Positions 83-36,725 of a stretch of 38,955 bases of DNA are shown here, piece by piece; position 1 is the stretch's first letter; the number at the start of each line of letters is the position of its first letter. Origin of the DNA: a virus; the IMG/VR virus record IMGVR_UViG_3300001528_000417, positions 1 through 38,955 of that record. One strand, written 5' to 3'. The position numbers and the translations under genes were made by a program. Below the pieces are notes generated by a model. That model worked only from the letters and a program-made list of their open reading frames with translations, was not told the DNA's origin and did not search any database.

Positions 83-565
83 CTACTCGTTCCATATCTT
101 TTCTATCTCCTCGTAAAACCGCCGCTTGACCTCTTCCATAACTTCTTCCCTTTTCAAAAACATTGAAGCGACAACGTGCGAATACGGCTCGACTTTACCG
201 ATTTTTCTGCCGAGCGAATCCTTTCCGCCCTTTTTCTTGCCCTTTTTCCCGGGACGTCCGAACTCAACGATAAGAACTCCGATATGCTCGCGGATAACCT
301 CGGTCGGGTAGCCAACATGAACGTGCCAGCCGCTTTTATCCTTGTATGTCCATAATTTCAGCCAGTCGGCGAACTGATGATATTTCGGATTCGGCGCGCT
401 CGCAAGCAGCCTTTTCTGTTCCTCAAGAAAGATCTGCCCCGCCTCGGCGACTACTTCCTTTGCGATACGGTCCTGAACCTTTTTGTCCATTTTGCGGAAT
501 TTCTCCTCAAGCGCCTGTATATCGCGCTGAAATCCGTCCAGTCCCAGATCTATATACCCGCTCAT
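83..565 (-). CDS. HK97 gp10-family head-tail/tail component protein
   Basis: 160 aa. The pattern ...HVHVGYP...IVEFGRPG...VEPYSH is typical of the gp10 family. ATGA overlap with the upstream ORF. Its position after the chaperone is atypical. Confidence 0.65.
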   Translation of the reverse strand: MSGYIDLGLDGFQRDIQALEEKFRKMDKKVQDRIAKEVVAEAGQIFLEEQKRLLASAPNPKYHQFADWLKLWTYKDKSGWHVHVGYPTEVIREHIGVLIVEFGRPGKKGKKKGGKDSLGRKIGKVEPYSHVVASMFLKREEVMEEVKRRFYEEIEKIWNE

Positions 566-1071
566 CAGTCATCATACCTCCGTATCTGTATCGGCGCTTT
601 CCTGTAGCCTTTTATAACCGCGTACCGCTCCCACCGCTCCGTTATTTCCCGAAGCGTCGCGCTCCAGAATTCTTCTTCGGGGCGGTGCATAATATCGCAG
701 TAAAGGCTCAGCATTGTTCCCGCGTTGGCTTTGTTTTCGCTCTTTTCGGTGTTCCCGTTCAGCGCGCTTAGCGGAAGCGCTTCGAGGACCGCGCGCTGTA
801 TAAGCGTTGTTACACTTTCGCTGCCGCCCGACATGAGCGCGTTGGTTATCTCGTCTTTCCGCTCATTTACCCCGAGCGTTTTAAGGCAGTCACGCAGTCC
901 CTCGGAAATGAACACCCGCGCTTTTGCCGCATTTTCGGAAATATCTCTTGTATCAAAGGGGCAAAGCCCCGATTTTTCTATATTTAAAAACGCCCTGTTA
1001 TCAAACCTAAACCAGAGCTTAGCTTCTCCGAACGGAAATTCCGTCCGCTTTTTCTCAATTTCGATAAACAT
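565..1071 (-). CDS. Tail assembly chaperone-like protein (gpG/gpT-like, apparently a single fused ORF)
   Basis: 168 aa immediately downstream of the major tail gene. SD GAGGTAG before the ATG. The call rests mostly on position. Confidence 0.5.
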   Translation of the reverse strand: MFIEIEKKRTEFPFGEAKLWFRFDNRAFLNIEKSGLCPFDTRDISENAAKARVFISEGLRDCLKTLGVNERKDEITNALMSGGSESVTTLIQRAVLEALPLSALNGNTEKSENKANAGTMLSLYCDIMHRPEEEFWSATLREITERWERYAVIKGYRKAPIQIRRYDD

Positions 1072-1092
1072 TTTCTACCTCATATATGTACT

Positions 1093-33430: not shown

Positions 33431-35020
33431 TTAATTCTGCCTCCATTTCTTTCGTATAATGATTCCGCCCTCTCCGTCTGATTCGGCTTTATAACGATAC
33501 TTACCTTTACTTATATATCCGATTTTTCCTTTTTCGTTACCGGGATAAATAGTATTAAACTCTCCGCATAGTTTACTGTAAGTTTTTACTCCAACTTTTA
33601 TACCACTATGATTTCTCTGCGGCGACGGCGCATACTTTGTTTTAGCCTGTGCTTCATAAACCGCCGTCACTGTGCCCTCATTACTGATTGTGACAGATTT
33701 AATTTTTCTGCCCGGGGCATTAGTAAACTTACCGTCTTTAGCGTGATAGGGGTTTTCTCTTTTTTCTGTTATTATACCATTCTCCGTATCGTTTTGCAAT
33801 ACCTCTCCGTCTTTTTTGCCCTCCACACTTGCCGTCTGATTCGTATTCGGCGTATAGACCTCTTTCGTTTTCGGGTTATAAAGCACGTCGTTAAGCCCGA
33901 GCTTGATAAAGTCCAGTCCGAGGGGCGGAAGATCTTCCTTGTAACGTACTTCGTCGGGTTGTAAGAAATTCGCGCTAAGTCCCGTTTGATACGCCTGATA
34001 ACGTTTGAGAATATCGCCCTTGAGCAGCTCCGAAACGTCGAACGCAAAATAGCTGCGTTCCTTTTCGCTTTCGAGCAGACACGCACGGTTTATCGCCGTT
34101 TCAAGCTCCTTTATGATAGGCAGTATGGCCGACTTTACCGCCGCGCTGTTCTGCTCGTCGTTCGCCGTACCCGTTACGACCGCTTCGGAAAGGTTCAAAA
34201 TGCTGTAAATAAGGCGGCTGTTCGTCTGTTTGTTTTCGTTGAGCTGCATTTCAACGGACGTGCTCGAAGCCTCGACAAACTTTATGCCGTTGTTGAGAAT
34301 CATCACGCCGTTGCTGTAGTCCGCGTAAAGCTCCTCCCACTTCTTTCTGAGCAGGTCCATTTCGTCCTGAGTGAGCTTGCGTTCGCATTCAAGAAAGCCC
34401 TTGCGGCTGCCGCCGTTGCGTATGAGCTGCTTCTCGAAAACTATCATGTTGTATATGCCCGTAAGCATTTCGGCGTTTTCCTTGACTATTCCCGTGCCGG
34501 TCACGCCGTCTTTCGTGTTGCGCGACATTATGATGAATTCATGCGGAAAATAGCAGCCGCCCGTGATAAAAATGCGCGCGTCCTTGTTTATAAGGTCGTA
34601 GTCTTTCGATACCGAAACCGCCGTGCAGTCCACATAATTCAGCGAAACAATGCTGTTTCCGTGGTGCTTGACGTAGACATACCCCGCGCCGCTGAGCAGA
34701 TAATCTCGGACGATCGCGCGCTTCATCTGGTACGAGTTGAGCAGGTCGCCCGTTTCCTCGTTGAGCAGTTTAAGCCGCGTATCGTCGCGAATTTCGTCGG
34801 TTCTGCTGTGGTCGCTGCTTTCGCGGTACAGCTTTATCGGGAGCATTGCGATAATCCCCGAAATAAGGTTGACCGAGCCTGCGACGGCGGGGATATTCAT
34901 TGCCTTTTCGACCGTCATTTCGTCCGCCGTGCCGAGCAGCCCCCGAAGTATTCTGTCATTCCCGCCGTCTGTCGCGACTTCTGCGGCGCGTGTTTCTTTT
35001 CTTCTGCCAAATAAGCCCAT
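33431..35020 (-). CDS. Portal protein (HK97 family) with a C-terminal extension of about 120 aa
   Basis: 529 aa. SD AAGGAGG. The extension contains ENPYHAKDGKFTNAPG (33710..33757), related to the X-cassette motif. Confidence 0.85.
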   Translation of the reverse strand: MGLFGRRKETRAAEVATDGGNDRILRGLLGTADEMTVEKAMNIPAVAGSVNLISGIIAMLPIKLYRESSDHSRTDEIRDDTRLKLLNEETGDLLNSYQMKRAIVRDYLLSGAGYVYVKHHGNSIVSLNYVDCTAVSVSKDYDLINKDARIFITGGCYFPHEFIIMSRNTKDGVTGTGIVKENAEMLTGIYNMIVFEKQLIRNGGSRKGFLECERKLTQDEMDLLRKKWEELYADYSNGVMILNNGIKFVEASSTSVEMQLNENKQTNSRLIYSILNLSEAVVTGTANDEQNSAAVKSAILPIIKELETAINRACLLESEKERSYFAFDVSELLKGDILKRYQAYQTGLSANFLQPDEVRYKEDLPPLGLDFIKLGLNDVLYNPKTKEVYTPNTNQTASVEGKKDGEVLQNDTENGIITEKRENPYHAKDGKFTNAPGRKIKSVTISNEGTVTAVYEAQAKTKYAPSPQRNHSGIKVGVKTYSKLCGEFNTIYPGNEKGKIGYISKGKYRYKAESDGEGGIIIRKKWRQN

Positions 35021-35030
35021 TTTTTCCTCC

Positions 35031-36725
35031 TTAATACTGTACTACCCAGCCGTGCTTGTCCTGTTCGAGCAGGTCGAGATTGAGCAGATACATAGCGTTT
35101 ATCAGCGCGACTACCATATCGACCTTGCCCTCCGATTTCTTTTTGTTGACATATTTGTTGAGGTTCGTGTCGGTCGTGCAGCGCGCGTTCTGAAAGTTTA
35201 TTTCAAGCAGCATATTTTCATCATAAACGAACTGCCGCTGCATTATCTTTTCTTCGAGCAGCTTTGTCGCAGGATGCAGAAAGCTCGAATGCTGCCGTAT
35301 TTCAACACACTCGATAGGATTTTCCGCGCTCTCGAATTTCTGCACAGAAGAAAGCGCGTTCCAGCGGTCGAAGCCTAGCTGTAAAACGCGCACGCCGTAT
35401 CGCTCCTCGATTCCGAGTACGAACCGCTCCACATATTCATAGTCGATTATGTCCTCGCCGCACGGGAAGCAGTCCCCCGCGCGTATCGCAGCCTTGTAAT
35501 CAACATTTTCCTTTTTCGTTTTTGTTTCAACCGCTGCCGCGGGAATAAAGGCGAAAACTCTCGCGTATACCACTCCGTCAACGCAGCAAGCCATAGCGAC
35601 GGCGGTGTTATCCGACGTCTGCGAGAGATCGACCCCGAGGAAAACGGAGCGCCCGCGCCAGAAATCGTCGTCTTTCGGCCGCCTGCATTCTTTCAGCCGC
35701 AGAACGTCCACATACCCCTCTACGCCGAGGCTCTTGTACATGATATTGTTGTGCTTGCAAAGGTAGTTCTGCCGCTTGTTTTCGTATAATACCGCGTCTG
35801 CTCGCTTGTCTTTCAGGTCGTCGAATATGTAGTCGTGGCTGTAGGCAACGGGGTTCGACTGGTATATGCAAAGGTCGTTCGTCTGCCATTCCCCGCGTAT
35901 TTCCTCATCGGGTTCATACAGCAGCGAGAAATACCGCTTGTCGGGGTGCAGTCCCAGAAGGACCTTTTTCGCCTTGTCTATTTCGTCGATAAGCACGTTA
36001 TTGTCATTCGGATACTGCGTGCTTATGATAATGCCGAGCTTGTTCCGAAGCGTTATCTGCGACGAGCGCATCGCTTCTACAGGGTAGCTGTCCATTGCCC
36101 CCGCTTCGTCCGCAAGAAATATATTCGCCAGCTTTCCGTCCATTTTATCCTCGGAGTAGGCGAGCGGCGTGTATTCGCTGTCGGTGAGAATACAGCGTAC
36201 CTCGTTGCGCATTACGCGGATTATCTTATCGTCGCTGAGCAGCGGCGAGGACTTTATGATTTTTCTGATAGCTCCCTGAAGCTCCTTTGAGAGTTTAAGG
36301 TCGGGCGCAACCGAGAAGAAACGCGAAAATCGCGGCGAAATAAGCATACCGATAATGAATATTACCGCAGACGTGAACGTCTTGAAATTCTTTCGGGAAA
36401 TCTCGAGCAGAGCCGTGCGGTAGTAAAGCTGACCCGTGCCGCGCTGTAAGGTGCAGAACACGGCGATAACGAGCCACACCGCGTAATCTTCGAGCGCGTC
36501 GTACATTGGCTGATTAAGGTCGGGGTGGTTGATGATTTTGAGCAGTTTGCAGACCTTTTTCAACATTGCTTCGCCGATGAACGCGCCTGCGTCGTCCCCG
36601 TCCGCTATTTCAAGCCATTTCTGCGCTTGAAGCCGAACATATTTCGGCACATATCGGTTATTCTCCTGCGCCGCCCACGCGGCATAGCTGTAAGCCCGCG
36701 TGCTTCGCACGTCCATTCGGGTCAC
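35031..36725 (-). CDS. terL: Terminase large subunit (Terminase_1-like)
   Basis: 564 aa. Walker-like region and the LADEAGAMD motif. Precedes the portal gene. Confidence 0.85.
   Translation of the reverse strand: MTRMDVRSTRAYSYAAWAAQENNRYVPKYVRLQAQKWLEIADGDDAGAFIGEAMLKKVCKLLKIINHPDLNQPMYDALEDYAVWLVIAVFCTLQRGTGQLYYRTALLEISRKNFKTFTSAVIFIIGMLISPRFSRFFSVAPDLKLSKELQGAIRKIIKSSPLLSDDKIIRVMRNEVRCILTDSEYTPLAYSEDKMDGKLANIFLADEAGAMDSYPVEAMRSSQITLRNKLGIIISTQYPNDNNVLIDEIDKAKKVLLGLHPDKRYFSLLYEPDEEIRGEWQTNDLCIYQSNPVAYSHDYIFDDLKDKRADAVLYENKRQNYLCKHNNIMYKSLGVEGYVDVLRLKECRRPKDDDFWRGRSVFLGVDLSQTSDNTAVAMACCVDGVVYARVFAFIPAAAVETKTKKENVDYKAAIRAGDCFPCGEDIIDYEYVERFVLGIEERYGVRVLQLGFDRWNALSSVQKFESAENPIECVEIRQHSSFLHPATKLLEEKIMQRQFVYDENMLLEINFQNARCTTDTNLNKYVNKKKSEGKVDMVVALINAMYLLNLDLLEQDKHGWVVQY

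Follow-up and report, generated by a model that had tools for sequence, protein, structure and literature searches.

Gene order in the head and tail region is among the most conserved features of siphophage genomes and is used for annotating genes by position. The window analysed here, the whole 38,955-nucleotide (nt) stretch of IMG/VR virus record IMGVR_UViG_3300001528_000417, raises the question of how a phage with the usual structural proteins came to carry their genes in another order, with those for the large terminase subunit (terL) and the portal placed between the tail-tube block and the tape measure gene. The permuted order is quite probably a fixed, inherited trait of a phage lineage, and neither an assembly error nor a recent event produced by the repeats now present at its junctions. 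The block order of the window recurs across the junctions in more than ten assemblies, 75-99% identical, that were produced independently in different studies and with different assemblers, and more distant relatives share that order without the repeated genes.

Late gene order of the window

The DNA of the window is a circular phage genome, and the phage is a temperate siphophage of HK97 type from gut Oscillospiraceae/Ruminococcaceae. Bases 1-75 are 100% identical to bases 38881-38955, which makes the contig a circle of about 38.88 kb and allows the gene order to be read across the contig end. The minus strand codes about 30 kb of the window. A plus-strand block at about 17-22.4 kb contains a tyrosine integrase gene (20592-21689, identified by family scan) and an exonuclease-like gene, and the phage is therefore considered temperate.

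Gene identities were assigned by PHROG and Pfam searches. On the minus strand, the order is HNH, terS, X1, a 52-residue (aa) open reading frame (ORF), S78 protease, HK97-fold capsid, p77 and Ad1, followed by head-closure protein, tail terminator, major tail protein, a 168-aa protein here called 'chaperone', and a gp10-like protein. Past the contig end come X2, a ribbon-helix-helix (RHH) gene, a frameshifted Bro-N/ant gene, a 34-aa ORF, terL and portal, and after the portal an acidic protein, DUF2513, X3, a 70-aa ORF, the tape measure, and Dit-like and Tal-like proteins. The genes other than those of the X type are:

6304..6705, minus strand: HNH endonuclease, first recognisable gene of the late array (PHROG 144, E 2.8e-19)
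5599..6171, minus strand: small terminase subunit, terS (PHROG 83, E 6e-9; 43-53% identity to the terS of relatives)
4142..4753, minus strand: prohead serine protease S78 (PHROG 80, E 1e-28)
2966..4129, minus strand: HK97-fold major capsid protein (PHROG 10, E 1e-64)
1135..2950, minus strand: p77, Ad1, head-closure, tail terminator and major tail genes, tightly packed (PHROG; weak Pfam matches)
2449-2742, minus strand: adaptor Ad1 (PHROG)
2148-2456, minus strand: head-closure protein (PHROG)
1795-2145, minus strand: tail terminator (PHROG)
1135-1791, minus strand: major tail protein (PHROG)
565..1071, minus strand: lineage-specific 'chaperone', named from position only; orthologues in types A, B and C (defined below)
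83..565, minus strand: HK97 gp10-like (neck) protein, displaced from the connector cluster (sub-threshold PF04883; predicted-fold matches)
37940..38116, minus strand: ribbon-helix-helix protein (Pfam RHH_1, E 6e-6; PHROG 876)
36953..37850, minus strand: Bro-N/anti-repressor gene split by a frameshift into 37620-37850 and 36953-37708 (a Bro-N profile spans both ORFs)
35031..36725, minus strand: large terminase subunit, terL (PHROG 9, E 3e-98)
33431..35020, minus strand: portal (Pfam Phage_portal, residues 44-363) with a C-terminal cargo extension starting from NPYHAKDGKFT, at about 33431-33760
33096..33446, minus strand: small acidic protein, 116 aa, partner of the portal cargo domain (52% identity, L098)
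32717..33127, minus strand: DUF2513 protein (Pfam, E 1.8e-23)
28206..31865, minus strand: tape measure protein (Pfam TMP_3, E 2e-31)

These searches confirm what a first-pass annotation of the DNA had read from it, namely a non-canonical order with terL-portal between the tail-tube block and the tape measure. Its second claim, that a gp10-family gene is displaced from the connector cluster, is borne out in position, with a family call that is itself sub-threshold: ORF 83-565 matches PF04883 with 18.1 bits (E 0.005), below the curated cut-off of 21.4 bits. Three of five orthologues match that family, the best with E 4e-4. An AlphaFold model of the protein (pLDDT 77) matched several predicted viral structures with a TM-score of about 0.5-0.6, which carry the names HK97 gp10 family or type I neck protein; against the Protein Data Bank (PDB), Foldseek of the model gave nothing significant and a sequence profile search gave chance matches only. 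For the 'chaperone', PHROG and Pfam yielded no family match, and a PDB profile search only chance matches. The idea that the 'chaperone' and gp10-like genes form a G/GT-type frameshift pair was ruled out, given that protease, terL and portal stand between them in type B.

The window's proteins are those of a canonical HK97/SPP1-type module: HNH, terS, terL, Phage_portal, S78, HK97-fold capsid, type-1 neck and TMP_3, all co-oriented. The arrangement differs, in that terL-portal follows the tail-tube block instead of forming a terS-terL-portal-protease-capsid series upstream of the tail genes. In a type-1 neck the order is Ad1, Hc1, Ne1 (gp10-like) and Tc1, before the tail tube; in the window, by contrast, the connector cluster does not include the gp10-like gene. 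Sister lineages show two more permutations.

In GenBank phages, megablast with both halves of the region and tblastn with the 'chaperone' gave no match, and the tail tube protein (tblastn) had only 26% matches, in Paenibacillus phages. The deposited phage genome collection that was searched holds no cultured member of the lineage, and the papers that literature searches returned do not describe a comparable late-gene order.

The same order in relatives

The order terS | protease, capsid, connectors, tail tube, 'chaperone' | gp10-like | terL, portal | tape measure is referred to as type A, and related loci are denoted by labels such as L098. In the assemblies that share it, unique cassette sequence bridges each junction. 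All junctions are crossed in L098, a 20-kb contig of a metagenome-assembled genome with 75-80% nucleotide identity to the window, and in L123 (31.7 kb) and L124, which are about 97% identical to it and include the step from portal to tape measure. At about the same identity, L127 extends from terS through the protease block to the portal, and L129 from the protease block to the portal and the first 79 tape measure codons. Shorter stretches are covered by L097 (98%; terS-X-protease-capsid), L111 (96-97%; tail tube-'chaperone'-gp10-like-X) and L112 (96-97%; the same, on to terL). The synteny comparison proposed by the first-pass annotation thus yields a block order common to L098, L123, L124, L127, L129, L097 and L112. 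A protein identical to the gp10-like protein of L123 is recorded in 89 blocks of the collection.

The same order also exists without X genes, in L132, L135 and L140/L141, where 4-78 nt separate gp10-like from terL. L132 is a prophage on a 117-kb contig, and its gp10-like protein is 61% identical to that of the window. It has terS, a hairpin and protease, later gp10-like, 78 nt free of any hairpin, and terL, and after terL the portal, a 65-aa gene, a hairpin and the tape measure. In L135 (45% identical) the gap from gp10-like to terL is 4 nt and the portal has no extension; in L140/L141 (65% identical) the gap is 14 nt.

The first-pass annotation had offered the repeats at the junctions as the explanation of the present order. 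This is not supported, since X-free L132, L135 and L140 have the same order, and a shared order in relatives without the repeats is what the annotation itself had named as a refutation. The misassembly that it had also allowed for is contradicted by the agreement of more than ten assemblies across the junctions.

Carrier genes, hairpins and putative embedded promoters

The junctions carry two kinds of repeat, namely an X gene in three paralogous versions and a hairpin element in four copies, and all of them are direct. The X paralogs share a carrier domain of about 70 aa, a coiled coil, encoded by N-terminal stretches of 224 nt at 5373-5596, 32408-32631 (90% identical to X1) and 38725-38948 (71% to X1). 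The features are:

5006..5602, minus strand: X1, carrier N-terminus (coiled coil and RFNPNHDPKNGRFTSG motif) fused to DUF6883 (Pfam, E 2e-17; alignment)
38373..38936, minus strand: X2, carrier N-terminus fused to a PBECR2 nuclease domain (Pfam, E 1.5e-16; PHROG 29609)
32152..32646, minus strand: X3, carrier N-terminus and a novel C-terminus (carrier DNA 90% identical to X1)
4858..5016, minus strand: 52-aa ORF after X1, candidate immunity or partner gene (ORF only)
31947..32159, minus strand: 70-aa ORF, its start overlapping the X3 stop, candidate immunity gene (sequence reading)
5382..5409, minus strand: putative sigma-70 promoter in X1, 12/12, extended -10, within the GVDISGGSGII codons (consensus match)
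32417-32444, minus strand: putative sigma-70 promoter in X3, 12/12 (consensus match)
4753..4831, minus strand: hairpin H1, predicted intrinsic terminator, ribosome-binding site (RBS) and protease start codon (repeat and fold)
36877..36955, minus strand: hairpin H2, predicted terminator and RBS, before the 34-aa ORF and terL (repeat and fold)
32648..32719, minus strand: hairpin H3, predicted terminator and RBS, before X3 (repeat and fold)
31863..31941, minus strand: hairpin H4, predicted terminator and RBS, before the tape measure; kept here in X-free relatives

The first-pass annotation had labelled the gene pair after terS as X1/DUF4926. X1 is present and carries DUF6883, while Pfam did not find DUF4926 on the adjacent 52-aa ORF, for which neither PHROG nor Pfam gave a match. 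The 70-aa ORF after X3 has no family match either. The RHH protein at 37940-38116 is a candidate antitoxin or immunity protein for PBECR2. X3 has an in-frame TGA at codon 13 (32608-32610, minus strand) where X1 and the relative L126 have TGT (Cys); its 5' end is probably that of a pseudogene, in which the embedded promoter and the downstream 70-aa ORF remain intact. The Bro-N/ant halves of the window encode 76 and 251 aa, and the L129 counterpart is an intact 291-aa ORF, for which a gene call gives 284 aa. PHROG and Pfam gave no match to a MuF (SPP1 gp7-like) domain on any X protein or neighbour.

The embedded promoters are located at the border between the conserved and the variable part of the carrier gene. 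L098 has 12/12 matches in three carriers (2933-2960, 3421-3448 and 14602-14629), one of them inside the portal gene, directly before its C-terminal extension. The conservation of the GVDISGGSGII peptide may hence partly reflect a signal in the DNA.

The hairpin element measures about 75 nt, and its core occurs four times in the window against none expected (100 shuffles). The stem has 12-13 bp (11-13 bp for the predicted terminators as a whole), needs G·U pairs and forms on the coding strand, being imperfect on the opposite one. Past the stem come a U-run and, about 20 nt on, a GGAG-type RBS with the initiation codon of the gene that follows. Exact identity extends over at most 58 nt among the hairpins (H2 and H4) and 29 nt among the X copies. 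Each of two cassettes can be delimited in this way, with a predicted promoter at 5382-5409 and a predicted terminator at 4783-4810 for X1, and at 32417-32444 and 31892-31921, respectively, for X3. In L098, an X cassette is also found between tail tube and 'chaperone', which is not a synteny break, and the four cassette terminators of that locus all differ in sequence.

The exact hairpin core was also found in 18 viral contigs of IMG/VR (L144-L161) that lack the structural genes of the window phage and have no homologues of its proteins apart from one DUF6883-like stretch. In L147 a DUF6883-like gene precedes the hairpin, an arrangement suggesting that a cassette is transferred along with its terminator.

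Exchange of cassettes and their cargo

Between phages about 97% identical, differences are confined to the stretch from the end of the X carrier to the hairpin. Relative to the window, L097 has about 980 nt in place of 5372-4823 and L112 about 760 nt in place of 38761-36949, in both cases exactly from carrier end to hairpin. Replacements bounded by these motifs were found in L097, L112, L123, L127 and L129. Between near-identical phages, the repeats appear to bound cassette replacements and not block moves.

The C-termini found on one carrier include DUF6883, PBECR2, CdiA_C and further unassigned domains. After gp10-like, for instance, the cargo is a 213-aa protein in L123-L125, CdiA_C in L126, PBECR2 in L127 and the window, and a 499-aa protein in L129; the X3 cassette is absent from L123. 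Small ORFs follow each cargo (52 aa, RHH, 70 aa and acidic 116 aa), and one such pair co-varies with its cargo: the window's portal extension has a homologue in the C-terminal part of one L098 X protein, and the gene downstream of that X protein is 52% identical to the acidic gene that follows the window's portal. One cargo-partner unit therefore fits either carrier.

With the X N-terminus as query, a word-indexed search of proteins gave a single match, and an exhaustive profile search was used instead. It yielded 266 representative proteins, about a dozen of which have the whole carrier, the remainder having only the RFNPNHDxxGRF linker, often several times per protein and up to seven times (P0033, P0042, P0044, P0046, P0047, P0050, P0053). 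A Pfam scan of nine linker-only proteins and one whole-carrier protein identified two portals and four S78 prohead proteases, all C-terminally extended, as well as one polyvalent protein and one protein with an ADP-ribosyltransferase domain. The linker may be a general junction or cleavage motif of head-delivered effectors. Fusions of the kind seen in the X proteins and the portal extension have been proposed to be packaged and injected (PMC5512222; PMC5576092). From these comparisons we infer a family of exchangeable effector/immunity cassettes, comparable to morons, that begin and end with the repeats.

Two further observations were made on these close relatives. In L125 (about 11300) and L129 (about 13391), corresponding to about 31650 of the window, the tape measure gene stops at the same point, after 79 codons; about 280 nt in common follow and then different non-phage genes (DUF4357; GMP synthase). 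This may represent a deleted prophage remnant or the end of an element. Phages 97-99% identical over the head genes (L128 1-4540, L127 1-683, L097 1-758) have a different terS N-terminus and no HNH gene, and in L128 a large serine recombinase and bacterial genes come as close to terS as about 1.5 kb on its upstream side. Different phage backbones share this structural block.

Other gene orders in related phages

Two other permutations were found. Type B (L012, L017, L047, L113, L115, L117, L118, L122 and L139) starts with HNH, terS, a small variable gene, capsid, Ad1, head-closure, tail terminator, tail tube and 'chaperone', and continues with protease, terL, portal, a small gene, gp10-like and tape measure. 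Its chaperone|protease, protease|terL and gp10|tape measure junctions have gaps of 0-12 nt or overlapping stop and start codons. X genes are missing from type B except in the fragment L106, and no protease remnant or other relic was found in type B genomes at the position of the type A protease.

Type C is represented by L137, with HNH, terS, protease, capsid, Ad1, a toxin-antitoxin insert, head-closure, tail terminator and gp10-like, then tail tube, 'chaperone', a hairpin, terL, an X-like 232-aa gene, an 86-aa gene, tape measure and portal. Here (14905-19058) the portal gene starts 8 nt past the tape measure gene, so that terL and portal are apart. L142 confirms this order as far as terL. In L137, the stretch of about 11600-12180 upstream of terL includes a GGTTCGAATCC T-arm-like motif.

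All late genes are co-oriented in every type, and the array begins with HNH-terS. 'Chaperone' and gp10-like proteins are orthologous across types A, B and C, and no homologue of either was found in canonical-order relatives or GenBank phages. The gp10-like gene stands past the 'chaperone' in type A, before the tape measure in type B, and among the connectors only in type C. About 90 other loci related via terL, portal, protease and capsid have the canonical order, and none of them has an X homologue.

Modules appear to be still exchanged between phages of different gene order: between L132 (type A) and L139 (type B), nucleotide identity is 88-93% over tape measure-Dit-Tal and 79% for gp10-like, against 66-70% for capsid and terL. 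The gp10-like gene could have been relocated by acquisition together with an adjoining module, followed by loss of the old copy.

Origin of the permuted order

The inherited order is best accounted for by a model in which a few old block transpositions, together with module exchange between co-infecting relatives, would have produced the permutations. What would make such an order tolerable is the coupling of genes within each block and a single late transcript that runs through all the blocks. At its 5' end a cassette would have a conserved carrier N-terminus that contains a consensus sigma-70 promoter and ends in the NPxHDxxGRF linker; next would come the toxin-like C-terminal domain, which varies, and small partner genes, and the 3' end would be a strong intrinsic terminator, directly succeeded by the RBS of the next late gene. 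Cassettes would be placed at block borders because only those are free of translational coupling, and in the lysogen the hairpin terminators would keep transcription from the constitutive cassette promoters out of the late genes.

Several points weigh against this explanation. The promoters, the terminators, the read-through and the packaging of X proteins are predictions made from the DNA. Every novel junction in the window does have an X paralog and/or a hairpin, as the first-pass annotation had stated. In X-free genomes of types A and B, one hairpin family brackets the permuted region, standing after terS and before the (gp10-like and) tape measure genes, and type A equals the canonical order rotated between these two conserved hairpins. 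The junction from tape measure to portal in type C is seen in the L137 contig alone. In rough neighbour-joining trees of terL and capsid, the canonical loci L001-L004 are placed beside type B, with type A apart, a placement that points to a mosaic history of the lineage. Finally, L126 contains the block from X1 to the tail tube twice (2423-6750 and 8759-13086, 99.98% identical), and the stretch that connects the copies holds an X-CdiA_C gene, the decayed remains of a hairpin and a start of the X3 type. Either the scaffold records a tandem duplication or the junction of a circle, which could be a genuine case of duplication through repeats, or the assembler looped through the X repeat.

One alternative is illegitimate recombination between unrelated phages, by which a foreign capsid-connector-tail-tube block was set beside terS and terL-portal was pushed downstream, with no repeats involved. 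In its favour, the canonical loci L001-L004 and L100, with which terL and capsid of types A and B group in the neighbour-joining trees, lack detectable homologues of the head-closure, tail terminator, tail tube, 'chaperone', gp10-like, Dit and Tal proteins, and tail-module exchange between types A and B is recent. However, one event cannot yield three permutations, protease and capsid are still beside their usual partners, the trees are rough, and no donor lineage was identified. We regard this course of events as rather unlikely.

A second alternative takes the repeats as ancient: an ancestor of canonical order would have had direct repeats (hairpin elements, X carriers or both) after terS, at the portal/protease border and before the tape measure, and a circle excised between two of them would have re-entered at the third, giving type A. 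The best argument for it is the rotation between bracketing hairpins described above. A hairpin also precedes terL both in the window and in type C L137, the PeSL cassettes and mini-circles of T4-type phages offer a precedent (PMC2839356), and the repeated block of L126 is joined at X/hairpin sequence. Yet no repeat is present between gp10-like and terL in L132, L135 and L140, and X homologues are absent from the canonical-order loci. Types B and C and the moves of gp10-like are not rotations and would require further events. The exact hairpin in 18 unrelated phage contigs argues for a widely shared terminator and not a dedicated recombination site, and the longest exact repeats are short, as given above. 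Hence, ancient excision is improbable. We are similarly doubtful of a broader version, in which the lineage repeatedly reshuffles essential head, neck, packaging and tail blocks via terminator/promoter cassettes in the manner of PeSL.

Misassembly, i.e., a wrong path through three direct repeats in a genome of canonical order, has practically no chance of being correct: a block swap between the repeats would indeed restore the canonical order, a 58-nt exact repeat is present and related contigs break or loop at the X repeat (L128 ends there; L126), but the contigs from different studies and assemblers agree, with unique cassette sequence bridging the junctions, and X-free relatives share the order with junctions of 4-78 nt.

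Given that the only recombinase found was the tyrosine integrase (ten larger non-structural ORFs were scanned, and not every ORF of the window), no invertase or other enzyme acting on the repeats was recognised. Two features of the window apart from the late array were also observed. Between the integrase and the lysis region, genes are flanked by a 127-nt direct repeat of 86% identity (21988-22114 and 23079-23205), with palindromic ATATCAATATTGATAT motifs at 22006-22029, 23097-23120 and 23137-23160; these could be operator or att-related sites. On the plus strand, near-identical consensus promoters (TTGACA-17-TATAAT) with a shared GGATATGCTATAATA stand at 13613-13642 and 37839-37867, and the latter, antisense to the RHH and X2 genes, could be a source of antisense RNA.

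Comparison with known systems

PeSL cassettes have been described in T4-type phages, for which recombination and circle formation were proposed (Arbiol et al. 2010, PMC2839356; Comeau et al. 2014, PMC4122927). The window resembles them in having repeated strong sigma-70 promoters and stem-loop terminators between genes, here in silico, and in insertions, deletions and replacements between very close phages that are bounded by the motifs. It differs in that the promoter and terminator are at opposite ends of the cassette, with the promoter inside coding sequence, and in that the cassettes, known here from sequence alone, are within an essential late operon of a siphophage. Furthermore, the block order is constant between the window's close relatives.

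Polymorphic MuF toxins have been reported in temperate phages (Jamet et al. 2017, PMC5576092), and PBECR fused to portal as well as polyvalent proteins have been described (Iyer et al. 2017, PMC5512222). In common with these, the window and its relatives have a conserved N-terminal head-associated carrier, variable toxin-type C-termini (PBECR2, CdiA_C, DUF6883) and small genes next to them. Unlike the MuF toxins, the carriers are the coiled-coil X domain of about 70 aa and the portal, with no MuF, and three to four cassettes occur per genome with a putative promoter embedded in the linker.

The morons of lambdoid and HK97-like prophages (PMC3594210) are also promoter-ORF-terminator units between late genes, as predicted for the window. 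In contrast to morons, the 5' end of the window's units is a translated carrier domain that is also read within the late array, and the units make up a paralogous, exchangeable family within one genome.

Implications

The phages studied are best described as a lineage of HK97-type siphophages in which permuted orders of the morphogenesis genes are inherited and polymorphic, and which carries a family of exchangeable effector cassettes with the repeats as their ends. The lineage is common in human and animal gut metagenomes, and it shows at least three departures from the canonical order with the same proteins. Annotation by position will mislabel genes in this lineage, and the canonical order is not mechanistically needed for assembly. 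The cassettes provide a compact case of hypervariable, probably virion-delivered effectors on a new small carrier, whose linker motif is also found on portals and prohead proteases. A comparison of types A, B and C could probe why the order is otherwise kept, be it for translational coupling, transcript dosage or compatibility of recombination modules. Should the reshuffling prove to be driven by the cassettes, the lineage would be a natural experiment on the conservation of structural gene order.

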